Shown: positions 983 through 55,323 of the stretch, piece after piece
How positions within the stretch are numbered: position 1 is the stretch's first letter
Layout: each line of letters starts with the position of its first letter
Assembly: GCA_039028615.1 (NCBI GenBank)
Contig: JBCCHT010000020.1
Span: forward strand, 64,001 to 128,000
DNA: 64,000 nt
Source: Myxococcota bacterium
Lineage (GTDB): Bacteria > Myxococcota_A > Polyangia > Nannocystales > Nannocystaceae
Reading direction: 5' to 3'
Program-made: the position numbers and the translations under genes
The notes under the pieces: model-generated
Databases searched by the model: none
What the model saw: the letters and a program-made list of their open reading frames with translations, nothing else
Told to the model about the DNA's origin: nothing

Positions 983-1942
983 TCAAGGCTCGGCGCCGTC
1001 GAGGATCCACTGCTCGATGGTGTCGATGAGGTCGGGCGCCAGGCCACCATCCGGCGCGGGCATGGGGTTGCCCTCGCCCCCCGCCTCGATGTGCGTGTTG
1101 TTGATCTTGTGCCACAGGTAGCTGTCGGCGGGCACACCGGGCTCGATGCGGTCGAGACCGGCCGCCTCGGTCGACGCCACGTCCACGAGGTTGGCGTAGC
1201 CGTCGGCCATGCTCAGCCCCGCCGGTTCGCCCGCGGTATGGCACTCGCAGTTGGCGTTGATGATGGGCTGGATCGTCTCGGCGAAGCTGATCGCGGGCTC
1301 GCCCGAGCTCTCGGCCGCCGTGTCGTCGGTCGTCTCCGCATCGCCGGAGGTGGTGGGGTCACCCGTGGTGTCGCCCATCTCGCCGCCGGTCGTCATGGGC
1401 TCGCCGGTCGTCGTCCCGGGATCGGCGTCGTCGTTGCCCGTGGTGGGGTTCGGGTCGCCCGTGGTCGCGCTGGGCTCGGCGTCGGAGAGCAGCGCATAGA
1501 AGATCGAGATCCCGTCGTCGATGCCGGTCACCAGCTGCTGCTCGAGGTTGATCTGCGCGACCGGGAGCGCTTCCCAGTTGCCCTGCCCCGATTCGAACGA
1601 GACCGCATCGACGGCCCCGACCGCCAACCCGGTGGTATCGGTGGGCAGCGTGGTCCGGTAGGTGACCGAGGCGGGAATCAGCAGCTCGGGGTTCGGCCGC
1701 ACCAGGTAGGCAGCACCGTAGACATCGGGCGGCTCGTTCGTCGACTCGATGAACAGCTCGACATCTTCTTCGAGCGCGCCGGGAAGGATGGCGATGGTCA
1801 AGACGCTGTCGAGTGAGGTGATGGTGCCCCCATTCGGGCCAATCACCACATTCGCCAGCTCCGTCGAACTACCGCCTCCCGAGTTGCATGCGGCGGCACC
1901 GAGCAGCAGAGCAAGGCCGTGAACACGAAGCGTTGCCTTCAT
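983..1942 (-). CDS. Lipoprotein: ZU5-like N-terminal domain, Thr/Gly/Asp linker, C-terminal cytochrome c-like domain (CxCH)
   Basis: Lipobox GAAAC; VIGPNGGTI...IAILPGAL; C-terminal FAETIQPIINANCECH...PGVPADSYLWHKI...MP...IEQWILDGA, resembling the planctomycete-type cytochrome c pattern. Confidence 0.8.
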   Translation of the reverse strand: MKATLRVHGLALLLGAAACNSGGGSSTELANVVIGPNGGTITSLDSVLTIAILPGALEEDVELFIESTNEPPDVYGAAYLVRPNPELLIPASVTYRTTLPTDTTGLAVGAVDAVSFESGQGNWEALPVAQINLEQQLVTGIDDGISIFYALLSDAEPSATTGDPNPTTGNDDADPGTTTGEPMTTGGEMGDTTGDPTTSGDAETTDDTAAESSGEPAISFAETIQPIINANCECHTAGEPAGLSMADGYANLVDVASTEAAGLDRIEPGVPADSYLWHKINNTHIEAGGEGNPMPAPDGGLAPDLIDTIEQWILDGAEP

Positions 1943-2068
1943 CGCAGTCTTCCCCGAACGCTGAAGGTAGCACGGTCACCTCGCCCGAAGGGCGGGCGCC
2001 ATCGCGCGAGCGCAAACCGGGCTGCCGGCGACGTTCGGGCTCGCGTATCCTCCGGCAGACCAGCCGTC

Positions 2069-3688
2069 ATGCCTTCCCTGCACCAGCTCGGGCTCGCCCT
2101 TCGCACCGCGCGACATCTGCGACCGCAACAGCTCGCCGCCCAGCTCGCTCACCGCGTGCGTGGGCCCGCTCGCATGCCTCGACGTCGGCGTGCGCCCGGC
2201 ATCGACTCGCTGGCTCCATGCTCGGTCGCCTTGTGCCCGTCGCCCGAAGGCCGACCCGGCGCCACTGGAATCGCGCTGGTCGGTCGCCCGCCCCACGACC
2301 CCACCACCGAAGGCTGGGACGCGGGCGCCAACCCGCTGTGGGCGTACACGCTGCACTACCACGGCTGGCTCAACCATCCCGAGGTGAGCACCGAGTTTGC
2401 CCGCGCGACCCTCGGGCACTGGATCGACGAGCATCGCCACGGCGTCGGCTGGGAGCCCTACCCCACTTCGCTCCGGGTGCTGCACTGGCTGGGCTGGCTG
2501 CATCGTCACGGCGCCGAGCTGCAGGCCTTCGAACGCGAGCGCATCTTCGGCTCGCTGGCGGCCCAGCTCGACCACCTCGCGGCCCACGTGGAGGTGCACA
2601 TCGATGGCAACCATCTGTGGACCAACCTCGTCGCGCTGACCACCGCGGGGCTCGCCCTGCGAGGACCCTTGCCGACCCGGCTGCTCGAGCGCTTCGAGGC
2701 TCGCACCGTCGACACCGTGCACGCCCAGCTCGCGGGCGACGGGATGCACGGCGAGCGAACGCCCTCGTACCACTGCCTGCTCACCGAGCAGCTCGCCGTG
2801 CTGTCGTCGTTTGCCCGGTCGCAGCGGCCCCGCCTCGCCCATGCGCTCGCGCCCGCGCTGTCGGCCATGCTCGAGTCGATCCCCGCGTTCACCCACCCCG
2901 ACGGCGACGTCGCGCTGTGGGGAGACAGCCAGCGCAACGCCCCCGTCACTCCCCAAACGCTGCTCGAGCGATTGGGTCGCACCATGCCCCGGGGGCATGC
3001 GGATGCCCCGGTCAGCGGCTTCGCCCGACGTCAGTGGGGGCCGTGGTCGCTGCTGTGGAATCGGGGCGACGTCGGCCTGTCGCACCAGGTCGGGCACGTG
3101 CACGGCGATGCCTTGGCGATCGAGCTCAGTCTCGGCGGCACGCGTGTGGTGGTCGATGCCGGGGTGGGCACCTACGAGATCGGGCCCGAGCGCGCCTACG
3201 CCCGATCCACCGCGGCCCACAACACGGTCACCGTGGGCTCGGGCGCGACCGACCAGCACGAGCTGTGGGCGAGCCATCGCATCGGGGCACGGGCGCAACC
3301 CCAGACCCTCGCCTGCGCCGACGATCGGATCGTGGCCGAGGTCCGCGGTCACGCCAGCCCGGCCACCCACCGCCGCCGCATCGAGCACGAGGGCGAGGTC
3401 ATCCGCGTGACCGACACCCTCGACCAACCGAACGTGCCGGCCGTGGTTCGCTACTTCGTCCCCGCCACGCTCGAGCCGAGGCTGCGCGGCGAGACCGTCG
3501 AGCTCGAGGCGGCCGGACGCCGGGTGCAGATCCGGGCGCCGGGCGGCCGCTGGCACGCCAGCGATGCTCCGGGCTGGGTCGGCATGGGTCGTAGCGCGCC
3601 GCGGGTGTGCCTGTCGCTGCCGCTGGGGATGCAGGGCACGGTCGTCGAGTTCCGCGCCCTCGGGGGCGGACCCGCGACGCCTCCCTGA
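2069..3688 (+). CDS. Heparinase II/III family protein
   Basis: LWAYTLHY, WEPYPTSLR, GNHLWTN, DGMHGERTPSYH, GHVHGDAL, VDAGVGTY, RSTAAHNTV. ATG 2069 chosen within ORF 1919..3688. Confidence 0.85.
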   Translation: MPSLHQLGLALRTARHLRPQQLAAQLAHRVRGPARMPRRRRAPGIDSLAPCSVALCPSPEGRPGATGIALVGRPPHDPTTEGWDAGANPLWAYTLHYHGWLNHPEVSTEFARATLGHWIDEHRHGVGWEPYPTSLRVLHWLGWLHRHGAELQAFERERIFGSLAAQLDHLAAHVEVHIDGNHLWTNLVALTTAGLALRGPLPTRLLERFEARTVDTVHAQLAGDGMHGERTPSYHCLLTEQLAVLSSFARSQRPRLAHALAPALSAMLESIPAFTHPDGDVALWGDSQRNAPVTPQTLLERLGRTMPRGHADAPVSGFARRQWGPWSLLWNRGDVGLSHQVGHVHGDALAIELSLGGTRVVVDAGVGTYEIGPERAYARSTAAHNTVTVGSGATDQHELWASHRIGARAQPQTLACADDRIVAEVRGHASPATHRRRIEHEGEVIRVTDTLDQPNVPAVVRYFVPATLEPRLRGETVELEAAGRRVQIRAPGGRWHASDAPGWVGMGRSAPRVCLSLPLGMQGTVVEFRALGGGPATPP

Positions 3689-43974: not shown

Positions 43975-44047
43975 AGCCGATCGCCCAAAGGGGCGTGTCC
44001 GCTTCGTGGCGTGCGGAGCATGACCGCGGCGGGCTAGAGTCGAACAG

Positions 44048-44443
44048 ATGAAGCCGCAGGACGACGGACCAAGGACGAACGGGCGCGTCGCGGACACGGT
44101 CGAAGACTGGGTCGATGGCCTGAGCGATCGAACGCGCGGCCAGGTCCTCGCGGCGGGCGGGGCCGCGGGATTGGCCGCCGTCTATCTGCTGTGGTCGTAC
44201 GGAATCGGGTTCGGCACCAACGGCGAGATCATCTCGAAGGAGCAGGTCGGGCTCGGGGCGTTTCTGGCCGCGTTGATGGTCTACGGCACGTCGCTACTCG
44301 TAGCGCCGGTCATGGCCGAGCCGGATCCGAGCCAACCAATGGCAGGCGCACTGCTCGAGGAACGACGCCGCGCCCTTTGGATCCGACGCCTGGTGGCGGG
44401 CGCCCTCGGCTTGGTGATCGGCTTCCTGCTCTTTCGGGGCTAG
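44048..44443 (+). CDS. Small hypothetical membrane protein
   Basis: Three TM segments in 131 aa. Confidence 0.65.
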   Translation: MKPQDDGPRTNGRVADTVEDWVDGLSDRTRGQVLAAGGAAGLAAVYLLWSYGIGFGTNGEIISKEQVGLGAFLAALMVYGTSLLVAPVMAEPDPSQPMAGALLEERRRALWIRRLVAGALGLVIGFLLFRG

Positions 44444-44733
44444 CCACCGTTCAGTCGCCACAGCACGTCGGCGACGACGAGCCACAGGCCCATGCCGATC
44501 CAGGTCACGCAGCAGACCCAGAACAACACTGCATCTTCCGTGCGCGACAAGTTCTGGACGATGTAGGTCTCGCCCGCGCGGATGCCATCGACGGCCCAGA
44601 AGATGAACAGCAGGCCCCAGACCGAATAGAGGTTGAAGACGGTGGCGGCCACCAACAGCGCCAGGACGACGACGGTGGGCCACTTGCCCCGACGGGGCGG
44701 GGCCGGAGCGGGAGTGCTGGATTCGCTGGTCAT
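44440..44733 (-). CDS. Small membrane protein, last gene of the graspetide operon
   Basis: ATG overlaps the ATP-grasp stop (ATGA); 2-3 TMs; WGLLFIFW...IRAGETY...R.EDAVLFW. Confidence 0.7.
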   Translation of the reverse strand: MTSESSTPAPAPPRRGKWPTVVVLALLVAATVFNLYSVWGLLFIFWAVDGIRAGETYIVQNLSRTEDAVLFWVCCVTWIGMGLWLVVADVLWRLNGG

Positions 44734-45629
44734 GCGCCGAGCCAGTCGAGCATGGCGTCACCGAGGCGCCCTTGGCAAACCCGGTCGAAGGCGACGAACA
44801 TCGGGGCGCTGTTGATCTCGAGGAAGGTCAGCGCTCCGCTGGCAGGGTTGGTCTTGAAGTCGGCGGCGGCGAAGTCCAGGCCGAGTTGCTCGGCGAGGGC
44901 GAGCAGGGCGTGCCCGATCGGAGCGGGCAGCGCCTCGAACGGCTCGACGCGCGTGTCGGCGGAGGCGCGGTAGTCGAGCTCGTCGGAGATCACCCGAAAG
45001 GCAAAGAGACGGCGACCGACGACGTAGACGCGGACCTCGGGCGGGACCAACCGTTGCTGGACGATGGCCGGCGCCGCAGCGACGCCGTCGTGTGCGTCGG
45101 TCTGCGCGAGGGCTTCGTCGAGCGGCCGGCACAGCGCACCGCCATCGATCGGCTTGACCACCCGCGGCCAGTCGGCGCCTTCCCGCAGCGCTCGCACGTC
45201 ATTGGTGAAGGCGGTGGCGGGCACATCGAGGCCCAGCGCCTTCGCCCGATGGAGCGCGAGGGGTTTGTTGGCTCCGTATTGCCGCGAGCGACGATTGAAG
45301 AACTTCACCGCGTCATGGGCGAGAGCCCAGCCGGAAACCAGCGTGTACCAAGCCATGGCCCGCTTGCCGACCGCAGGCCGGGGGTCGGCCATCGCGGCGA
45401 AGACGTCGTGACGCAGGAAGATGGCGGAGGGTGCAAGCGGCTGTCCGTCGAGGAGCAGGGCGTCGCCCTCGAGATCCCAACGCACGGCCGGGTCGTGCCC
45501 GGGTCCGACCCGCAGCGAGCGAAGCGTCAGGCCGCGCTCGCGAGCGCGCTGCTCGAGGCATCCGAGGTTCGGGTCGGCCGATCCTCCGGCCACGAGCAGG
45601 CAGGGCTCAGTATCCGCCGAAGGGTCCAC
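44730..45629 (-). CDS. ATP-grasp ligase, putative graspetide (omega-ester) synthetase, PsnB-like
   Basis: NKPLAL..AKALGLDVP.T..TND; VVKPIDGG; IVQQRL; EVRVYVVG; LDYR; LGLDFAAADF; FLEINSAPMF; overlaps the precursor gene's 3' end. Confidence 0.88.
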   Translation of the reverse strand: MDPSADTEPCLLVAGGSADPNLGCLEQRARERGLTLRSLRVGPGHDPAVRWDLEGDALLLDGQPLAPSAIFLRHDVFAAMADPRPAVGKRAMAWYTLVSGWALAHDAVKFFNRRSRQYGANKPLALHRAKALGLDVPATAFTNDVRALREGADWPRVVKPIDGGALCRPLDEALAQTDAHDGVAAAPAIVQQRLVPPEVRVYVVGRRLFAFRVISDELDYRASADTRVEPFEALPAPIGHALLALAEQLGLDFAAADFKTNPASGALTFLEINSAPMFVAFDRVCQGRLGDAMLDWLGA

Positions 45630-47688
45630 TGTCGTCGCCCGAAGAGGAATCGCCGTCGGAGTCTTCGTCGGACGCCTCCGCGCTCGCGGGTGCCGACTGC
45701 ACCGGGTCCGAGGGATGAGCGGGGTCCTCCTCGCCCCCGGCGAGCGTCGTCGGGCGCGGCTCAGTGGGCGGTCCTTCCTCTCCCACCGCCAACGTCGTCA
45801 TCATCGGACCTTCCTCGCCGACCGCGAATGTCGTCGGCTGCGGAGCGGGCGGTCCTTCTTCCCCCACCGCCAGCGTCGTCATCATCGGACCTTCCTCGCC
45901 GACCGCGAATGTCGTCGGCTGCGGCGACACGGGCGGCCCCTCTTCGCCCACTGCCAGCGTCGTCATCGTCGGCCCTTCTTCACCCACCGCTAGCGTCGTC
46001 GGGTGCGGTGGAGCGGGCGGTGGTCCCTCTTCGCCCACCGCCAGCGTCGTCATCGTCGGCCCTTCTTCACCGACGGCGTGCGTCGTGGGGTGCGGGGCAA
46101 CCGGTGGAGACTCCTCGCCCACGGCCATCGTGGTCATCGTGGGGCCCTCTTCGCCCACCGCTTGGGTGGTCATGACGGGCTCTTCTTCGCCGACGGCCTC
46201 CGTCGTCGCGGCGGGCTCGGTCTCCCCTGCGCCCTCGCTCGGGCTCTCCGCATCCAGCTCTTCGGGGGCATCCTCCGTCGACACGGGCGGAGTCGGAGGC
46301 GGATTCTCCTCGCCCAGCGCCTGGGTGGTCATCACCGGGCCCTCTTCGCCCACCATGGCCGTCGTCCGCCCAACGGGGTTGGGCGCCGCGACGCGATCTT
46401 CCCCGCCCCACATCGCCGAGGTCATGCCCGGGTCTTCCTCGCCCCACACCGACGTCGAGCGCGGCGGGCCTTCCTCCCCGATCGCTTGTGTCGTGAAGCG
46501 CGGACCCTCTTCTCCGACCGCCAGCGTCGTCGCGCCAGGGCCCTCTTCTCCGACCGCCAAGGTCGTCGGACACGAGGGGTCGGGCGGCGTTTCTTCGCCC
46601 GCCACCTGGGTCGTGGCGCTCGGGTCCTCTTCGCCCACCATCTGCGTCGTGAAGCGAGGCTCGTCGACCACCCGCGGGGACGAGCGCGACCACGGGCTCC
46701 CCACGCGCTCCGCCTCCGAGGGTGGGTCGCCCCCCTCTTCCGTTTGCGACGAGGGCCCGGGCACATCCTCGCCGAAGCCGAAGGTCGGCTGTTCTTCCCC
46801 CACCGCGAGCGTGGTGAACGTGCCCGCCCCGACCTCGGGATCGGTGTCGTAGACGTATCCGAGCGATCGATGATCGAGCAGATCGCGGGGCCGGATCGCC
46901 TGCGGCGAGTCACCGAAGGGCGCGACCACCTCGGGGTCCTCGCCCCCGTTCCACGGCCACAGGGTGTCCTCCCAGTTGTGCCCGCTCGGCCCCTCGCCCT
47001 GCGGCTGGTACTCGGCGCCCGGATGACGTCGCTGCCAGTCGGACCACAGCCGATCGATGAACGCATGCACGAGCCAGAACAGCGGATCGTCGGGGGCATC
47101 GTCGCGCGCCATGGCGCCGCCGATCCAGGCATGCACCCGATTGTGGAGCGCAGGGCCGTTGACCCACCCCTCCATGCGATTGCGGAACCCGGTCGACGAC
47201 GATCCGTCCCACGGCACCGCGTCGTAGACCGCGTCGGTCATCACGTGCTCGAGGTCTTCGACGGTGGGCAGCGTACGCGCGGCGGGGTCGAGCCCCAGGC
47301 GGCGGATCAAGAAGCCCTCGCCCGCCAGCGGCCACGCCCCGGCTTCGGTGGCAAAGGGCCCGGTGATCACCATGCCGTCGTGCGGGCGACCGTCGCCGCC
47401 CATGAAATCGTCGGCCCATAGCGGCGATTGCAGCGAGCGATCGCGCGTGAAGTCCCAGTAGGGCAGCGTCACCTCGGGCTCGGCGCTGCGCAGGTCTTCT
47501 TCGAAGCGCAGCAGGAAGTGGCGATGCCAGGCGAAGAACGCCGGCCCTCGTCGTGCCCAGCGAGCACCGAGCCGATAGATCCGCACGTGCTCGTCGTAGC
47601 GCCCTTCATCCTTGAGCGCGAGCAGGGCCTGCACGAAGCTCTGCCTCTCCTTGGCCGTACACCGGGCGTAGTTCTTGCGCGTCCTCAT
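45607..47688 (-). CDS. Tyrosinase-like domain fused to a multi-core graspetide precursor tail (TTxxxGEE x20)
   Basis: MelC2-like N-terminus (RKN..., FFAWHRHFLLRFE, LPYWD, FMGGDG, HNRVH, DPLFWLVHAFID, LGYVYD), then about 400 aa of TTxxxGEE repeats. Confidence 0.92.
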   Translation of the reverse strand: MRTRKNYARCTAKERQSFVQALLALKDEGRYDEHVRIYRLGARWARRGPAFFAWHRHFLLRFEEDLRSAEPEVTLPYWDFTRDRSLQSPLWADDFMGGDGRPHDGMVITGPFATEAGAWPLAGEGFLIRRLGLDPAARTLPTVEDLEHVMTDAVYDAVPWDGSSSTGFRNRMEGWVNGPALHNRVHAWIGGAMARDDAPDDPLFWLVHAFIDRLWSDWQRRHPGAEYQPQGEGPSGHNWEDTLWPWNGGEDPEVVAPFGDSPQAIRPRDLLDHRSLGYVYDTDPEVGAGTFTTLAVGEEQPTFGFGEDVPGPSSQTEEGGDPPSEAERVGSPWSRSSPRVVDEPRFTTQMVGEEDPSATTQVAGEETPPDPSCPTTLAVGEEGPGATTLAVGEEGPRFTTQAIGEEGPPRSTSVWGEEDPGMTSAMWGGEDRVAAPNPVGRTTAMVGEEGPVMTTQALGEENPPPTPPVSTEDAPEELDAESPSEGAGETEPAATTEAVGEEEPVMTTQAVGEEGPTMTTMAVGEESPPVAPHPTTHAVGEEGPTMTTLAVGEEGPPPAPPHPTTLAVGEEGPTMTTLAVGEEGPPVSPQPTTFAVGEEGPMMTTLAVGEEGPPAPQPTTFAVGEEGPMMTTLAVGEEGPPTEPRPTTLAGGEEDPAHPSDPVQSAPASAEASDEDSDGDSSSGDDSGPFGGY
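45727..46815 (-). repeat. Coding tandem array of 20 TTxxxGEE cores
   Basis: Counted from the translation; a 51-nt block is identical at 45793 and 45874 (81-nt period). Confidence 0.95.
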
Positions 47689-47691
47689 GGT

Positions 47692-47916
47692 TCAGCCCTC
47701 CTCCGAGCCGCTGTGGTGCAGCGCCAGCGCCTCGGCCAGGGCGCGCGGGCTCGCATAGCCGCGAAAGGGCAGCGTCGCACACAGCCAGCCCTGATCCTCG
47801 TCGAGCGTCGCGACCACGCGCCGCTCCCCGATGGTCACCGCCACGGACTCGGGCGCATCGTCATCGGTCTCGATGACCACGTCGTGGCCATGGAACTGCT
47901 CCTGTGTACTCGGCAT
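47692..47916 (-). CDS. MelC1-like tyrosinase caddie protein without signal peptide
   Basis: RBS GGAGGG before ATG 47916; EQFHGHDVVI...VTIGERRV...GWLCATLPFRGYASPRALAEAL resembles the caddie core; ends 3 nt before the tyrosinase ATG. Confidence 0.7.
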   Translation of the reverse strand: MPSTQEQFHGHDVVIETDDDAPESVAVTIGERRVVATLDEDQGWLCATLPFRGYASPRALAEALALHHSGSEEG

Positions 47917-47983
47917 GCCCCTCCGATGGTATGCCACCCCGACCGGGCTTGCTTCCCGTGCCCATGCGCGGCATGACCTACGC

Positions 47984-48940
47984 GTGCACGCGTTGACGCT
48001 CGAAGACACGGTGGCCCTGCGCGACGTCGAGCCCCCCACGCCCGGGCCCGGTCAGGCCCTCATCGCGCTGCGCAGCGCGGGTATCTGCGGCACCGATCTC
48101 GAGCTCGTCGCCGGCTACAAGGGGTACCGCGGCATCTTGGGTCACGAGTTCGTCGGCGAGGTGGTGCGCTGCCCGGACGCCCCGTTTTGGGAAGGTCGTC
48201 GCGTCACGGGTGAGATCAACCTGACCTGTGGCGAGTGCGAGCCCTGCCGCGCAGACCTCGCGAAGCACTGCACCACCCGCACCGTGATGGGCATCCTCGG
48301 GCACCCGGGCTGCTTCGCCGAGCAGCTCGTGCTGCCCTTCGCCAACCTCCACGAGGTCCCCGCCCGCGTCTCCGACGACGAGGCGGTCTTCACCGAGCCG
48401 CTCGCCGCCGCCTTCGAACTGTTCGAGTCGGTCGAGCTCGACGACGAGACCGAGGTCGCCGTGTTCGGCGACGGACGACTCGGCTTGCTCATCGGCCTCG
48501 CCTTGCGCAGCCGCGACGTGCCCGTCGTCGCCGTCGGCCGACACCCTCGCAAGCTCGCCATCGTGGCCGCCGCGGGGGCCCGCACCGTTCAGCCGGCCGA
48601 GCTGGGTGACCAACGCTTCGAGGTCGTCGTGGACGCCACCGGTTCGGCCGAGGGCCTGGCGATGGCCTTCGACCACGTACAACCGCGAGGCACCATCGCC
48701 CTCAAGAGCACCGTGCACGGCACGGTCAACCTCGACACCTCGGCCCTGGTGGTCAACGAGATCCGCCTCGTCGGCTCCCGCTGTGGCTCCTTCGACGTGG
48801 CCCTCGAGGCGCTGGCCCAAGGCCGCATCGATCCGCGGCCGCTCATCGACGCCCGCTACCCGCTCGACCAAGCCGCCGCCGCCATGGAGCACGCCCAGCG
48901 CAAGGGCGTGCTCAAGGTGTTGCTGCAGCGGAGCCCGTGA
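47984..48940 (+). CDS. Zn-dependent alcohol dehydrogenase (MDR family)
   Basis: GICGTD; GHEFVG; CGECEPC...HC; EPLAAA; GDGRLG; GSRCG. GTG 47984. Confidence 0.92.
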   Translation: MHALTLEDTVALRDVEPPTPGPGQALIALRSAGICGTDLELVAGYKGYRGILGHEFVGEVVRCPDAPFWEGRRVTGEINLTCGECEPCRADLAKHCTTRTVMGILGHPGCFAEQLVLPFANLHEVPARVSDDEAVFTEPLAAAFELFESVELDDETEVAVFGDGRLGLLIGLALRSRDVPVVAVGRHPRKLAIVAAAGARTVQPAELGDQRFEVVVDATGSAEGLAMAFDHVQPRGTIALKSTVHGTVNLDTSALVVNEIRLVGSRCGSFDVALEALAQGRIDPRPLIDARYPLDQAAAAMEHAQRKGVLKVLLQRSP

Positions 48941-50178: not shown

Positions 50179-53100
50179 CTGAGCAAGGACGGCAAGTTCG
50201 GAACCTTCGGCGGGGTCTTCACCCCCTCCATCCTGACGATCCTCGGCGTCATCATGTACCTGCGCTTGCCGTGGGTCATCGGCAACGCCGGCCTCTGGAT
50301 GGGCCTGGGCATCATCGTCGTCGCCCACGTCATCTCGATCACCACCGGGCTGTCGATCTCCTCGATCGCCACCGACAAGAACGTCGGCGCGGGCGGGCCC
50401 TACTACATCGTCTCGCGCAGCCTGGGCCTGCCGATCGGCGGCACGCTCGGCTTGGCTCTATTCGTGGGGCTGTCGTTTTCGATCAGCCTGTACGTGATCG
50501 GTTTTTGCGAGAGCATGCTGTCGCTGACCGGCTTCGAGGTGAGCCCGGGCAACCTGCGGATCGCGGGCACGATCACCATCGTCGCGGTCACCGTCGTCAC
50601 GTTCATCTCCACCGCGTTCGCGATCAAGACGCAGTACCTCATCCTCGGGGCGATCGGCCTGTCGCTGCTATCGATCGCCTTCGGCTTCCTCGGCTCGAAC
50701 CCCGCCCCCGTCCCCGCCACGCCGCAGTTCGACGTGGCCCCCAACGCGCCCTCGATGGGTGAGCTGTTCGGGGTGTTCTTCCCCGCGGTGACCGGCTTCA
50801 CCGCGGGCGTGAACATGTCGGGCGACCTCAAGGACCCGAAGCGGGGGATCCCCGTGGGCACGCTGGCCGCCATCGGCGTGGGCATGGTCGTGTACCTGGC
50901 GCTGGCGGTGTTCCTCGCCTACCGGGTCGACGCCTCCGCGCTGCGCGACCAGACCGACGTCCTCACCCAGATCGCGGCCGTGCCCGCGGCGGTCACCGCC
51001 GGCATCTGGGGTGCCACCCTCAGCTCGGCGCTGGGCAGCATCCTCGGGGCACCGCGAATCCTCCAGGCGCTGTCGGTCGACCGCATCACCCCGCGCTTTT
51101 TCGCCAAGGGCACGGGCAAGACCAACGAGCCGCGCAATGCCCTGCTGCTCGCGTTCGTGATCGGCGAGGGCGGCATCCTCATCGCCGAGCTCGACGTCAT
51201 CGCGCGCGTGGTCTCGATGGTGTTCTTGGCCACCTACGGGTTCTTGAACATCAGCTCGGCCATCGAGAGCTGGGCGAGCCCGGACTTCCGGCCCGACTTC
51301 CGCATCCCCCGGCTGGTGAGCGTCATCGGAGCGGTCACCTGCGCGGTGGTGATGATCCAGCTCGACTTCGCGGCCATGGCCGCCGCGACCGCGATCCTCA
51401 CCGCGCTGTTTCTGCTGCTCAAGCGCCGCCAGCTCACCCTGGACGCGGGCGACACCTGGGAGGGCATCTGGTCGTCGATCGTGCGCGCGGGCCTGCATCG
51501 GCTCAACCAGAGCGGCCGCGGGCAGCGACGCAACTGGCGACCCAACGTGCTGACCTTCAGCTACGCGGGCGACTCCTCCCGCCCCCAGCTGCTCGAGCTC
51601 TCACGCGCCCTCATCACCGGCAACGGGCTGCTCACCGACTTCGAGCTGCTCGATCCGACCCGCGGCCACTCGGGAGACACCGACGACGACGATGACGACA
51701 CCAGCCCGGTGGGGGTCTTTCGTCGGCGTACGCCCTGCCGCGACTACTACGAGACGGTCTCCGCCGCCTGCCGCCACCATGGCTTCACCGGCATCGACCC
51801 CAACGCGGTCATGCTCGACTGGGACGTCGACCGCTCGCAGCCCGCCCGCCTGCTCGCCCTGCTGCGCAATACCGCCGAGCAAGACCTCAACCTGCTCGCC
51901 CTGCACTACGACGAGGAGCGGGGCTGGGGCCAGCGACGCCGGGTCGACATCTGGTGGCGGCCGCAGCAGGGCAATGTGGCGCTCAGCCTGTCGCTGATGC
52001 GCTTTTTGACCCGCTTCGAGGAATGGCGAGCGACGCAGCTGCGCTTCGTGCTCGTGTCCGAGGACACCTCGTTCAGCGACGACCTGCTGCACGCCATGCG
52101 AGGGGTGCTGGCCGAGGCTCGCGTCGAGGCCAAGGTCAAGGTGGTCGCCAGCCCCTCGCAGGCGCAGGGCTTCGAGGCCATGGTGCGCCAGGAGTCCAGC
52201 GATGCCGACCTCGTGGTCATGGGTCTACCGCGGACCCGCGACCTCGACGAAGAGCGCATCGCCAGCATCGACGAGATGCTCTCCGGGCTCGGCACCACGC
52301 TGCTGTTGCAGGGCTCTTCGCTCTTCGAAGAGGTCCTGCCCGTGGGCGGGCGCACCGGCCTGGTCGAGGCCATCGAGCGCGCCCAGTCCAGCGCCACCGA
52401 GCTTCGACCGCTGCACCTGCCCAAGATGGCCGAGCTGGAGGAGCCCGCGTCCAACTTCGCCTCGCGGCTGGGCAAGCTCACCGACGAGCTGTACCGGCTC
52501 GGCCTCGCCCCCGTGCTGGGGCGCCAGGAATCGCTGCTCAGCGACGTCAAGCAGCTGGTCGTGCGGCAGTTCGAGATCGTCCGCAAGGGCGTGGACGAGG
52601 CCGACCCCGCCCGCGCCCGCAAGCCCGCGGGGCGAGCCCAGGGCGGCTTCCTGTTCCAGGCCCGCAAGCTCATCGACACCTTCGAAGAAGAGGAGCTCCC
52701 CGCCCAGGCCAAGGCCTTGCACGATCGCCTCGGCACCTTCATCTCCGGCCTGTCTCGCCTCGGCCGCGACGTGCCCAAGACGATCCGCGTCCGCATGATG
52801 CCGGACGAGCTGGCGGCCAAGCCCGAGGACGAAGGCTACCTGCGGCGCTTCAAGTGGCGCCGTCGCTGGGCCTCCCGGCTGCTGCGCAGCACGACCTACG
52901 AGGCTCCCATCGGGGTGCTGCAAGCCTGGTACATCGACGAGGGCGCGGCCGAGCTGCTCGAGCAGACCTTGCGCGGGGTCGAGTCGTGCAGCCACCGGGT
53001 CACGGTCCAGCTGGGTAAGATCCTCAACGAAGCGGCGACCGAGCTGGGGGCGGTGCTGTCGGCCATCGACCGCCGGGACATCGACGCGGACGGCATCGAG

Positions 53101-55323
53101 GAGCGCAAGCGGCGGGTGGTGTCACACGTCGACGCGGCCATCGCCTTCGGGCGCGAGCAGACCGAGAGCATCGCTGCCCGCCTCGCCGAGCGCAGCCACG
53201 AGCTGAGCCAGTCGCTGTGTCGCGACATCGAGCGCCTCGACATCGGCCATCTCGTCCGCGGCGAGCGCAAGCCGCCCAAGGCCAAGGCCGCCGCCGCTCG
53301 CTTCGCGGCGCTGCGGACCAGCGCGGACACCTGGCGCGACCACCAGGCGCTATTGCTGCACCGGGCCCAGCTCGGGGTGCAGGTGGCCGCGTTCCAGCAT
53401 CGCTTCTCCGTGCTGGCCCTGCGGGCGCGCAACGACATCGTCCAGGAAATCCGCGGCTCGGTGCTCGGGGACGGCAACGCCCTGCTCGAGACGCTCAAGA
53501 ACTTCGCCGAGCAGGCCCAAGAGGGCGCCCCCAAGCCGCCTTCGGAGCGCGACCTCAAGGCTCGCTTCGACGGGCATGCCGTGCTGGAGACCATCGCCCG
53601 CGACGTGGACGAGCACGTCAAGGAGCTGCCCGAGACGATCACGACCCTGGGCGACGAGTCCATCGCTGCGCTCGAGAGCGGGGTGATGGCCGACCCCGAA
53701 GAGGTCACCGTCTCCGTCCGACCGCTCATCAAGGTGCTCATCGAGACCGAGTTCTTCGAGGTCATCAACCACGAGATCTCCGGCATCCCGCTGCAGGAGC
53801 AACGCACGGTGGGCGTGGCCCGGGACGTGATGCGGCTGTTGTCCTTCACCCTGGGCGACCTCGATGCCGCGGGCGGGTGGGACCACGCGGGGCTCCGCAA
53901 GCAGGTGCTGGGGGTCGTGCGCGAGGGCACCCATCGGCTCGAGGCCGAGCTCAAGGTCCTGCAGGCCACGCTCGACACCTTTGCCGACCAAGTGGGGCAG
54001 CAGCTCGAGACCCTGCGCGAAGAGACGGCCCCCTTCACCCTCACCAGCCGCTCCGATCGCCTCGCCCACTACATCCGCAGCCGCGGCAGCCAGCGCGCCG
54101 TGTCGCGGATCCGCGAGCTCGGCCAGCGCATCGCCGACCGCACCCGGGCCACCTTCGTCGCCCTGCTCTATCGCAGCAGCGCGGGGGTGCTCTTCGCTCG
54201 CAAGCTGCGGCGAGGCCAGGACGACGAGCAGACCGCGGTCGATCAGATCACCACCACCGCCCACGCGCTGACGCCTCGGCGCGACCTGATGCGCTCGCTG
54301 CCCTTCTACTACCGCCAGCTCTTCTCCGGGCAGGCCACCATCGGCGAGACCTTCTGGGTGGGACGCAAGGCGGAGCTCGACCGGGCGCGGGCCGCCATCA
54401 AGCGGCACGACCAGGGCGGCGCGGGGGCGCTGTTCGTGGTCGGCGAGATCGGCTCCGGGAAGACCGCCCTGTGCCAAGCGATCGTCAGCAAGCACCTGGC
54501 GCGTCGCACCGTGTATCGCATCACGCCTCCGCCCGGCGGCGCCATCGAGCTGGCCGCCTTCCGCCTGGCCATCGAGGGCGAGATCAAGGAGCGCGGCGAA
54601 CTCGATGCCCTGATCGCCGAGGTCCCCGACGGCAGCGTGTTCGTGTTCGACGACCTCGAGCTGTGGTGGGAGCGCAGCGACGCGGGGATGATCGTGCTGG
54701 AGCGCTTCATCGCGCTGCTGCGCGCCCACGGCCGCCGCTGCCTGTTCATCGCCAACCTCAACACCCACGCCTGGCGGGTGCTCAACCGCTCGGCCCGGCT
54801 GGCCGAGCACGCCCTGTCGGTCGTCGAGTGCGAGCCCTTGCCCGCCGAGGACCTCAAGTCGATCATCTCGCTGAGGCACGGCTCGACCGGGGTGCACTTC
54901 GAGCTCGACGGCACCCCGGAGGACGAGCTCGCCCCCTGGCGACAGGCGCGGCTATTCACCCGCTACTTCGACTTCTCCCACGGCCTGGTCGCGGTCGCGC
55001 TGCGGGCCTGGCTGTCGCATATCGACAAGATCGACGGCTCCACGCTGCAGGTTCGCTGGCCCAAGCGCCCGCGTGCCGATGCGATCGCCGACCTCCGCGT
55101 CGAGCTGCGGGCCCTGCTGGTGCAGCTCATCGTCCACAAGCAGCTCAACCTCCGCCGCCTGCGACGACTCTCCGCCATCGATCCTCCCACCCTCGAGGCG
55201 GACCTCGGCGCCCTCGTCCGCATGGGCCTCGTGCGCCGTGACGAACGCAGCGTCATGCACGTCGACCGCTTCATCGCCCACCTCGTCACCGACCGCCTGC
55301 GGGCGCAGGGGATGCTGGCATGA
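50179..55323 (+). CDS. Cation-chloride cotransporter (SLC12/APC permease) fused to a helical region and a P-loop NTPase with wHTH-like end
   Basis: KFGTFGGVFTPSILTILGVIMYLR; GGPYYIVSRSLG; FFPAVTGFTAG; NWRPNVL; FWVGRKAEL; GEIGSGKT; VFVFDDLE. Conserved sequence begins upstream of ATG 50254; start is CTG 50179 or a frameshifted TTG 50175. Confidence 0.88.
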   Translation: MSKDGKFGTFGGVFTPSILTILGVIMYLRLPWVIGNAGLWMGLGIIVVAHVISITTGLSISSIATDKNVGAGGPYYIVSRSLGLPIGGTLGLALFVGLSFSISLYVIGFCESMLSLTGFEVSPGNLRIAGTITIVAVTVVTFISTAFAIKTQYLILGAIGLSLLSIAFGFLGSNPAPVPATPQFDVAPNAPSMGELFGVFFPAVTGFTAGVNMSGDLKDPKRGIPVGTLAAIGVGMVVYLALAVFLAYRVDASALRDQTDVLTQIAAVPAAVTAGIWGATLSSALGSILGAPRILQALSVDRITPRFFAKGTGKTNEPRNALLLAFVIGEGGILIAELDVIARVVSMVFLATYGFLNISSAIESWASPDFRPDFRIPRLVSVIGAVTCAVVMIQLDFAAMAAATAILTALFLLLKRRQLTLDAGDTWEGIWSSIVRAGLHRLNQSGRGQRRNWRPNVLTFSYAGDSSRPQLLELSRALITGNGLLTDFELLDPTRGHSGDTDDDDDDTSPVGVFRRRTPCRDYYETVSAACRHHGFTGIDPNAVMLDWDVDRSQPARLLALLRNTAEQDLNLLALHYDEERGWGQRRRVDIWWRPQQGNVALSLSLMRFLTRFEEWRATQLRFVLVSEDTSFSDDLLHAMRGVLAEARVEAKVKVVASPSQAQGFEAMVRQESSDADLVVMGLPRTRDLDEERIASIDEMLSGLGTTLLLQGSSLFEEVLPVGGRTGLVEAIERAQSSATELRPLHLPKMAELEEPASNFASRLGKLTDELYRLGLAPVLGRQESLLSDVKQLVVRQFEIVRKGVDEADPARARKPAGRAQGGFLFQARKLIDTFEEEELPAQAKALHDRLGTFISGLSRLGRDVPKTIRVRMMPDELAAKPEDEGYLRRFKWRRRWASRLLRSTTYEAPIGVLQAWYIDEGAAELLEQTLRGVESCSHRVTVQLGKILNEAATELGAVLSAIDRRDIDADGIEERKRRVVSHVDAAIAFGREQTESIAARLAERSHELSQSLCRDIERLDIGHLVRGERKPPKAKAAAARFAALRTSADTWRDHQALLLHRAQLGVQVAAFQHRFSVLALRARNDIVQEIRGSVLGDGNALLETLKNFAEQAQEGAPKPPSERDLKARFDGHAVLETIARDVDEHVKELPETITTLGDESIAALESGVMADPEEVTVSVRPLIKVLIETEFFEVINHEISGIPLQEQRTVGVARDVMRLLSFTLGDLDAAGGWDHAGLRKQVLGVVREGTHRLEAELKVLQATLDTFADQVGQQLETLREETAPFTLTSRSDRLAHYIRSRGSQRAVSRIRELGQRIADRTRATFVALLYRSSAGVLFARKLRRGQDDEQTAVDQITTTAHALTPRRDLMRSLPFYYRQLFSGQATIGETFWVGRKAELDRARAAIKRHDQGGAGALFVVGEIGSGKTALCQAIVSKHLARRTVYRITPPPGGAIELAAFRLAIEGEIKERGELDALIAEVPDGSVFVFDDLELWWERSDAGMIVLERFIALLRAHGRRCLFIANLNTHAWRVLNRSARLAEHALSVVECEPLPAEDLKSIISLRHGSTGVHFELDGTPEDELAPWRQARLFTRYFDFSHGLVAVALRAWLSHIDKIDGSTLQVRWPKRPRADAIADLRVELRALLVQLIVHKQLNLRRLRRLSAIDPPTLEADLGALVRMGLVRRDERSVMHVDRFIAHLVTDRLRAQGMLA

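Follow-up and report, generated by a model that had tools for sequence, protein, structure and literature searches.

A probable pseudo-tyrosinase with a tail of plesiocin-type cores, its caddie-fold partner and a Group-2-type ligase: a probable graspetide system with a protein-sized substrate

Graspetides are usually seen as peptides steered by an N-terminal leader. What, then, would a graspetide-type ATP-grasp ligase do next to a gene that joins a tyrosinase-like domain, in a single reading frame, to a long array of plesiocin-type cores? We address this question for a locus in a 64,000-nucleotide stretch of DNA, hereafter the window (positions 64001-128000 of contig C20 in genome G000, which has 12.27 Mb and approximately 70% GC). 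Four minus-strand genes lie here in tight coupling, with open reading frames (ORFs) for a 74-amino-acid (aa) protein, a 693-aa fusion, a 299-aa ATP-grasp ligase and a 97-aa membrane protein. The first three form a conserved module: a caddie-fold partner, a pseudo-tyrosinase with a tail of 20-22 cores, and a Group-2-type ligase. We suggest, with a probability of roughly 0.6, that this is a three-gene graspetide system acting on a protein-sized substrate, in which the ligase would dock on the fusion and cross-link its tail, with the pseudo-enzyme as cargo and the resulting hairpins as inhibitors. The features of the locus are as follows.

47692..47916, minus strand: caddie-like small ORF, 74 aa, ATG start with GGAGG before it
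45607..47688, minus strand: whole fusion ORF, 693 aa, comprising tyrosinase-like domain, core array and C-terminal motif
46819..47688, minus strand: tyrosinase-like domain, residues 1-290 of the fusion (PF00264; CuB site intact, CuA site degenerate)
45727..46815, minus strand: core array, residues 292-654, with 20 exact and 2 degenerate TTxxxGEE motifs and Pro-rich linkers
45766..46162, minus strand: youngest part of the array, a tandem repeat at the DNA level
45610..45624, minus strand: C-terminal PFGGY, residues 689-693, a motif at which the ligase is proposed to dock (a "follower")
44730..45629, minus strand: graspetide-type ATP-grasp ligase, 299 aa, GTG start, with R73, R200 and D219-Y220-R221
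44440..44733, minus strand: membrane ORF, 97 aa, in ATGA overlap with the stop of the ATP-grasp ORF

The coupling of these genes is as the initial annotation had described it: 3 nucleotides (nt) separate the small ORF from the fusion, the ligase ORF, if started at the GTG at 45629, overlaps the 3' end of the fusion by 23 nt, and an ATGA joins ligase and membrane ORF. A database copy of the ligase (P0061, 287 aa) starts 12 codons later, at the alternative GTG at 45593, so the 23-nt overlap is not certain; the tight coupling of the genes holds either way.

That the tyrosinase ORF runs without a stop into 20 TTxxxGEE motifs had also been noticed, and it does; two degenerate motifs (STSVWGEE and TSAMWGGE) have to be added, all of them lying within residues 292-654. 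Such an array is not expected from composition: when the 403-residue tail was shuffled 20,000 times, the mean number of motifs was 0.018 and the maximum 2, and none was found in the remaining five reading frames of the window. Core positions 1, 2, 6, 7 and 8 are nearly invariant, and position 3 is variable (L9, Q5, A2, F2, S, E, M, H). About four copies, with a period of 81-84 nt and 82-85% matches, make up the final ~400 nt (45766-46162), the only stretch of the array that is still tandemly repeated in the DNA. The older units have retained T, T, G, E and E while their remaining positions drifted at the DNA level, which points to selection on these five residues. The protein ends in GPFGGY, and it is the only open frame of at least 30 aa in the 12.27-Mb genome to end in PFGx[FY].

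A six-frame scan of the same genome returned only two open frames with at least two TTxxxGEE motifs, each directly upstream of one of the genome's two PsnB-like ligases. One is the fusion; the other is the precursor of a canonical plesiocin-type cluster on contig C18 (L002, 1..3552). This precursor (2471-2695, minus strand) has 74 aa, an LFIEDL leader and four TTLAIGEE cores, and its 311-aa PsnB-like ligase (1438-2373, minus strand) is 26-32% identical to the window ligase; the cluster also includes an HlyD-like gene, followed by the start of a C39-type peptidase. The initial annotation had called the cores of the fusion plesiocin-type, and the presence of this PsnA2-like precursor in the same genome bears it out. 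Repeats of this kind occur in other settings as well: protein P0036 (802 aa, from an ENA metagenome) has TTMAVGEEGG units placed between repeated globular segments of ~150 aa and a faint, below-cut-off match to Emfourin, a metalloprotease inhibitor (E = 0.029).

Is the ATP-grasp protein of the window a graspetide synthetase? Its best NCBIfam match is TIGR04187 (ATP-grasp ribosomal peptide maturase; E = 5.2e-24), followed by MvdD, MvdC and grasp-with-spasm, with rimK_fam at E = 2.9e-4. All six matches at E ≤ 10 among PDB sequences are graspetide ligases, PsnB (7DRM) being the first (E = 8.7e-20). The AlphaFold2 (AF2) model of the ligase, with a predicted local distance difference test (pLDDT) score of 89.1, leads to the same family: all 15 Foldseek matches listed above rank 31 are graspetide ligases, PsnB coming out best (E ~1e-20), then PruB, CdnC, AMdnB, MdnC and MdnB, and ArgX, RimK and LysX begin at rank 31. 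In a quick 25-row tree, the window ligase groups with the ligases of loci L005 and L016 (support 100), and the branches leading to the RimK-like and GshB proteins of this genome measure 9-10 changes per site. A grouping with RimK or LysX was thus looked for by PDB search, Foldseek and the quick tree, and was seen in none of them.

Residues R73, R200 and D219-Y220-R221 are invariant in all 16 aligned sequences, the last three belonging to the LDYR motif (residues 218-221) that the initial annotation had picked out. In the alignment of the PDB match they stand opposite Arg72, Arg213 and the DFR loop of PsnB, a matching that assumes 20 extra N-terminal residues on the crystallized chain. According to the PsnB preprint, these residues are conserved, serve catalysis and recognition, and hold the ring-forming Glu and ATP; Arg101 of PsnB is described as conserved only in Group 2a. 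Tyr95 takes the place of this arginine in the window ligase, in whose clade the segment is 14 residues shorter, and one of the seven residues of the PsnB leader pocket is identical. The LFIEDL-type leader of Group 2a is absent from the fusion and present in the C18 precursor. Relatives' precursors that end in PFGx[FY] carry a Group 2 label in Carter et al. 2026 (PMC13097080). By sequence and fold, the window ligase belongs with the graspetide synthetases and not with enzymes of RimK/LysX type. Elsewhere in the genome, contig C55 (L003, 1420-3495, minus strand) encodes a 691-aa protein with two tandem MvdD-like ATP-grasp halves, which score 410 and 242 bits with TIGR04184 (cut-off 475, reached by neither); this could be a microviridin-type enzyme made of two fused ligases.

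These results bear on the possibility that the tail goes unmodified, as an acidic linker or surface repeat rich in Pro and Thr, and that the ATP-grasp enzyme acts elsewhere, for instance by adding amino acids to a C-terminus as RimK does. We consider this improbable. T, T, G, E and E are kept in repeats long diverged at the DNA level, the PsnA2-like precursor in the same genome has an identical core, the PsnB-type residues holding the ring-forming Glu are invariant, and RimK and LysX rank under all graspetide ligases. What speaks for it is that the ligase stays under the curated cut-offs, that its relatives are sometimes named "RimK-type ligase-like", and that ligation at the conserved extreme C-terminus is conceivable in principle.

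If the fusion is a ligase substrate and has no Group 2a leader, what would the ligase recognize? A word-based search gave at least 323 ligase relatives at E ≤ 1e-5, with ~45-55% identity, and a scan of species-representative genomes gave 128, from which 80 loci were kept. They span Acidobacteriota, Gemmatimonadota, Myxococcota, Pseudomonadota, Planctomycetota, Verrucomicrobiota and others. The arrangement of the window, in which an ORF with the repeated donor/acceptor pattern overlaps the ligase start, is common to 63 of the 80 loci, where a same-strand ORF bearing at least two core motifs stops shortly before the ligase (median of 34 nt to the tblastn match). Exact PFGx[FY] endings are found in 44 of these 63 precursors and a relaxed form in 54. 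All-against-all clustering of the 4,174 ORFs of the 80 loci recovered the ligase in 80/80 and repeat-derived frames in 75/80; any further gene cluster reaches at most 9/80, barring an antisense-frame cluster over the ligase gene (26/80). Since nothing beyond ligase and precursor is widely conserved, these are two-gene systems, and the C-terminal motif is the sole element besides the cores that the clade precursors have in common.

The region ahead of the first core is highly variable in length: it counts at most 35 residues in 36/63 precursors (some only 2-4) and at least 100 in 23/63, although some of the long N-terminal parts (L058, L059, L079) are probably over-extended by the start-codon rule. 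The initial annotation had proposed that an enzyme fold replaces the leader. This part is not borne out, because many clade precursors have almost nothing before the first core while sharing the C-terminal ending; cargo seems a better description of the N-terminal domain than a stand-in for the leader. Pfam recognizes several such domains in the clade, namely PrcB_C in L007/L023 and L044, RTX in L072, Calx-beta in L089 and tyrosinase in L073 (L023 encodes the same 269-aa protein as L007, of genome G003). No Pfam match was obtained for a ~140-aa domain common to eight Acidobacteriota loci, of which three were scanned (L017, L024, L030).

Two lines of literature add to the shared ending. For fuscimiditide, PMC13003496 gives RPFG as the key recognition sequence of the leader, and a leader relocated to the C-terminus is still functional. 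Graspetide leader motifs include PFFARFL and, more generally, P-h-h-x(1,2)-h (Makarova et al.). From the common ending, the Pro-aromatic leader motifs and the working engineered C-terminal leader we infer that PFGGY is a natural docking motif, and PFGx[F/Y] is probably the C-terminal docking signal of this ligase clade. Docking at the C-terminus would leave the N-terminus free for varied domains.

A C-terminal aromatic residue could also be taken for an outer-membrane or secretion signal; we set this aside, the motif being short and Gly-rich and tracking the ligase clade. Other endings exist. Three Acetobacteraceae precursors (L071, L072, L047) end in ...D(H/P)xFW(A/S)A or ...DPWGA and not in PFGx[FY]; two of them have RTX repeats, and the ligases of L047 and L072 group with support 100 in the quick tree. 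Such endings would fit a tail ending that co-varies with the ligase lineage. In a Longimicrobium metagenome-assembled genome, a 645-aa protein beside a clade ligase (L076, 3894-5831) has STDxYGEE-like units and an ending other than PFGx[FY]; PAP2 is weakly matched (E = 0.008) within its 566 N-terminal residues.

The domain carried by the fusion belongs to the tyrosinase fold, with PF00264 matching residues 45-221 (E = 1.3e-34), the best PDB match being a Streptomyces tyrosinase (E = 1.2e-72), and the MelC2 equivalog NF047834 scoring 277.7 bits, under its cut-off of 450. We compared the copper ligands in alignments to the solved Streptomyces tyrosinase and six reference tyrosinases. All three CuB histidines are kept in 6/6 members of the fusion clade. 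At CuA, the first histidine is Tyr and the second Arg in 6/6, and the third is His in 4/6 and Asn in 2/6; the window protein thus has one of three (Tyr38, Arg46, His55), and L005 and P0004 have none. By comparison, all six reference tyrosinases and both Planctomycetota fusions have the three CuA histidines. The loss of two of them throughout the clade makes a binuclear copper centre unlikely. The domain is therefore probably not an active tyrosinase, and we read it as non-catalytic cargo or scaffold. The initial annotation was right about the fold, and its "tyrosinase" is unlikely to hold in the sense of an active enzyme.

The Planctomycetota fusions (L073, P0025) keep all six histidines and are 34-36% identical to the window domain, and the ligase beside the Planctomycetota fusion has a different position in the quick tree. 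Two separate origins of the tyrosinase fusion are probable, though weakly supported. A second tyrosinase of the genome is encoded on contig C52 (L012, 1-2565, minus strand), at the N-terminal end of an open frame that exceeds 850 aa. Its motifs suggest an intact CuA site, and by likeness to P0024 it may be a tyrosinase-von Willebrand A fusion.

Directly upstream of the fusion, the 74-aa ORF yields no Pfam, NCBIfam or PDB sequence match, and a profile of four partner sequences found nothing among PDB sequences at E ≤ 10. Its likeness to caddie proteins comes from fold comparison only. The template-free AF2 model (4-row alignment) has a mean pLDDT of 85.1, and caddie/MelC1 chains occupy all of the top 21 Foldseek ranks listed, with template-modeling scores of 0.70-0.74, 17-19% identity, root-mean-square deviations of 2.3-4.3 Å over 69-74 columns and E-values of 0.01-0.17. 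The protein contains the motif LPFRGYASP and no signal peptide by inspection. Its complex with the tyrosinase-like domain is predicted with a score of 0.91, against 0.26 for the best of three controls; the mark applied to this score is reached by 116/157 solved complexes and by 2/215 mismatched pairs. Three runs agree in at least 93% of contacts, with partner pLDDT ≥ 87. The invariant Phe51 is placed against His182, Asn183, His186, residue 187 and residues 194-196, so that the partner is predicted to cap the pocket of the domain, with Phe51 over the CuB histidines. Because caddie-tyrosinase complexes have already been solved, this result shows likeness and is no proof of binding. The caddie-like character assigned to this ORF at the outset is thus supported by the fold of its model, and binding to the domain is predicted. 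Moreover, the partner is conserved along with the fusion (in G004/L005, L016 and L105): tblastn found it at 6/94 loci, which represent three genomes and are all fusion loci, with L105 in addition. Its LPFRGY resembles the PFGGY/PFGRY of the tails, probably by chance; the L105 partner reads LPFVGH.

Could the tail instead regulate the domain, as a latency or auto-regulatory element, or could its hairpins be tyrosinase inhibitors? Latent tyrosinases and polyphenol oxidases have C-terminal shielding domains. Fusions occur in two distant tyrosinase lineages, of which the Planctomycetota form keeps its six histidines. There is also a precedent for inhibition in the graspetide microviridin A, reportedly a weak tyrosinase inhibitor with a half-maximal inhibitory concentration of 0.33 mM. 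We nevertheless give this explanation very little credence: the same tail and ending are found on unrelated domains (PrcB_C, RTX, Calx-beta, unknown folds) or on no domain at all, the degenerate CuA site leaves little activity to regulate, and the predicted occupant of the pocket is the small ORF and not the tail.

The fusion has orthologs elsewhere. A protein search with it gave 60 matches, 14 of them retrieved: six are fusions of tyrosinase and tail (P0001-P0004, the N-terminally truncated P0005 and the distant P0025), P0006 is a plain tyrosinase, and seven carry repeats on other backbones. P0001 (753 aa) is 80% identical to the window protein over 98% coverage. Among 41 related genomes, G000 included, there are eight matches at E ≤ 1e-10. 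Full-length orthologs are present in G004 (L005, 672 aa) and G001, and also at L105; G005 has a tyrosinase match only (34% identity), and the 41-genome scan found no fusion ortholog in G002, of the same genus. The search for further tyrosinase-plus-tail loci that the initial annotation had called for thus succeeded.

This conservation decides against an assembly or annotation artifact, with two genes misjoined or a repeat collapsed. The continuous frame from domain to tail recurs in at least four other assemblies, and at the window's own junction we found neither stop nor frameshift. The sequencing runs with the stretch amount to one DNA run, X1, and no RNA run is listed; two further runs from the same study carry almost none of the stretch's words. 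Logan contigs from X1 show 0 differences to the window, a single one (46042-48100) crossing the junction, though X1 is possibly the source of the window, so that this agreement is not independent support. The segment 45822-46042 is covered, in this one run, by short unitigs only, which makes the exact copy number of the youngest repeats less sure, and the near-identical P0005 and L005 differ in repeat number. An artifact is all the same highly implausible; the fusion is real and conserved. As to P0005 and L005 (912-2930), which come from different assemblies, they are ~3 "GPSPQPTTLxVGEE" copies apart, whether by real copy-number variation or by repeat collapse in assembly.

How, then, might the system work? 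In the reading that we favor, the ligase would dock at PFGGY, the extreme C-terminus of the 693-aa protein. By homology with PsnB acting on PsnA2, it would use ATP to phosphorylate Glu side chains in each TTxxxGEE and then close two Thr-Glu omega-esters per unit, so that the 400-residue tail would become some 20-22 bicyclic hairpins with up to 40-44 esters; the cross-linking is suggested by strong homology and synteny. The tyrosinase-fold domain and its caddie-fold partner would be non-catalytic cargo or scaffold. Group 2 graspetides are reported as protease inhibitors, and by this analogy, plesiocin included, the hairpins would most likely inhibit serine proteases. The variable third core residue would then give the heads different specificities. 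A bolder version has a widespread ligase branch reading PFGx[F/Y]-COOH, the array hung repeatedly on folded domains, and a mature product that stays intact as an "armored", multi-headed inhibitor of ~70 kDa with ~40 esters and a pseudo-tyrosinase plus caddie-fold cargo; this we put forward tentatively, at somewhat short of an even chance.

Several observations weigh against the system as we propose it. The ligase has no Pfam family match and scores far below the curated cut-offs (85 bits versus 350 for TIGR04187, 47 versus 475 for MvdD), and its tree is a quick one, poorly resolved apart from the grouping mentioned. The docking role of PFGGY is drawn from co-occurrence; even the relaxed motif is missing in 9/63 adjacent precursors, and 17/80 loci have no repeat ORF by the pattern used. 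With a fully conserved CuB site and 72-80% identity of the domain between orthologs, some metal-dependent activity may persist. The score of the partner complex may stem from the model's memory of solved caddie-tyrosinase complexes. Finally, there is no protease, exporter or signal peptide to account for an encounter between a cytoplasmic product and external proteases.

A rival reading gives the product a different fate: the fusion would be a polyprotein, its domain a disposable carrier, and free hairpins would be cut from the tail and exported, perhaps in trans by the peptidase-ATP-binding cassette (ABC) transporter of the C18 cluster. Characterized Group 2 precursors are cleaved at GG sites by peptidase-containing transporters. 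An [A/G/D]-G pair lies two residues ahead of the first core in 6/6 fusions, and a C39-type peptidase, HlyD and ABC set does stand beside the canonical precursor of the genome. We find this unlikely, if worth keeping in mind. Across the 80 loci, the ligase clade has no conserved protease or exporter, no cleavage motif recurs in any obvious way in the Pro-rich linkers, and the conservation of domain and partner at 72-80% identity would be needless for a throw-away carrier.

The fourth gene is a different matter. The 97-aa membrane ORF belongs to no Pfam or NCBIfam family, the sole family match for it and the small ORF being DUF3203 at E = 0.12. By tblastn over 94 loci, only the window's own loci matched; in L105, convergent ABC-2 transporter genes are found downstream of the ligase in its place. 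The membrane gene is thus translationally coupled here, yet it is not a conserved member of the system: of its assignment to the operon, the ATGA coupling stands, and no related locus has a homolog. A promoter and terminator scan of 44000-48300 was uninformative (0 promoter-like sequences, and 1 terminator-like versus 1.4 expected). Farther along the window, on the plus strand, a 1689-aa ORF (50254-55323) begins with ~400 residues that resemble a multi-pass membrane transporter, and continues as a long soluble region in which GEIGSGKT resembles a P-loop, both judged by eye.

The locus and its relatives suggest three extensions to the usual picture of graspetides: C-terminal docking would already be natural, whereas chemists engineered a version only in 2026; graspetide chemistry would apply to protein-sized substrates, with dozens of cross-links; and the cross-linkable array would be a portable module set on varied domains. 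Together they would mean that this chemistry is used on proteins more widely in nature, a use so far largely unremarked. A five-residue C-terminal tag and a compact 300-aa ligase would make a simple protein-stapling tool. In addition, a tyrosinase-fold pseudo-enzyme that retains its caddie raises the question of what the pair does without binuclear copper.

Among known systems, the closest is PsnA2/PsnB of Plesiocystis pacifica, a Group 2 system with the same TTxxxxEE core (TTxAVGEE here, AIGEE in the bound region of PsnA2) and likewise several cores per precursor. PsnB is the best solved relative of the window ligase in both sequence and fold, and the two share Arg72, Arg213 and the DxR loop (PsnB numbering). 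The differences lie in the substrate and in how it is probably recognized: the fusion has 20-22 cores instead of 4, a folded domain within its 693 aa, no LFIEDL leader and a PFGGY ending, and the ligase has no Arg opposite Arg101 and one of seven leader-pocket residues in common with PsnB. Unlike the plesiocin system, the window locus includes no peptidase-ABC transporter.

In Carter et al. 2026 (PMC13097080), the Group 2 entries with a PFGx[F/Y] terminus have the same core and the same ending and come from the same phyla (Longimicrobium, Thermoanaerobaculia, Pyrinomonadaceae, Kofleriaceae). Their RODEO dataset includes forms of ~240-300 aa, some with N-terminal domains of ~115-160 aa; these are predicted precursors only, and the sections examined take up neither the C-terminal motif nor the N-terminal domains. 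Among the entries examined in its supplementary file 2, tyrosinase, PF00264 and HNRVHAW occur 0 times and the window ligase was not encountered, which does not prove absence. No tyrosinase-graspetide fusion was found in the published literature searched. The initial annotation knew of no described system with this architecture; domain-fused Group 2 precursors do exist in the 2026 dataset, and what was not found in the entries examined there is the tyrosinase form. Short and ~300-aa domain-fused Group 2 relatives were hence known already, and the tyrosinase form appears to be new.

A natural graspetide "follower" was not found in the literature searched, which yielded engineered or unrelated cases. 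The ThfB constructs for fuscimiditide resemble the fusion in having recognition C-terminal to the cores, several cores, and an RPFG that contains PFG (PMC13003496). They are man-made and belong to a different graspetide group, whereas here the motif is natural, stands at the very C-terminus and is widespread. Corallotide CorA (Group 15) likewise stands out for its size as a precursor, its repeated motifs and the structure of its N-terminal region. CorA differs in having 5 Lys-Asp isopeptide repeats, an N-terminal helical region and a need for partner proteins; it has no known enzyme fold, and its ligase is of another group. ThfB has reportedly been used for engineered protein cyclization.

For the other half of the module, the comparison is with MelC1/MelC2 of Streptomyces. 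The gene order is the same, the gene of the small partner coming immediately before that of the tyrosinase. A Tat signal is present on MelC1; the partner has no signal peptide by inspection and no detectable sequence similarity to any PDB chain or Pfam family, and what MelC1 and the partner have in common is the caddie fold and, by prediction, an aromatic residue over the CuB histidines. The fusion matches MelC2 over its tyrosinase domain (E = 1.2e-72 to 5.4e-72), has replaced the first CuA histidine by Tyr and the second by Arg in 6/6 clade members, and adds to the domain a tail of 400 residues.

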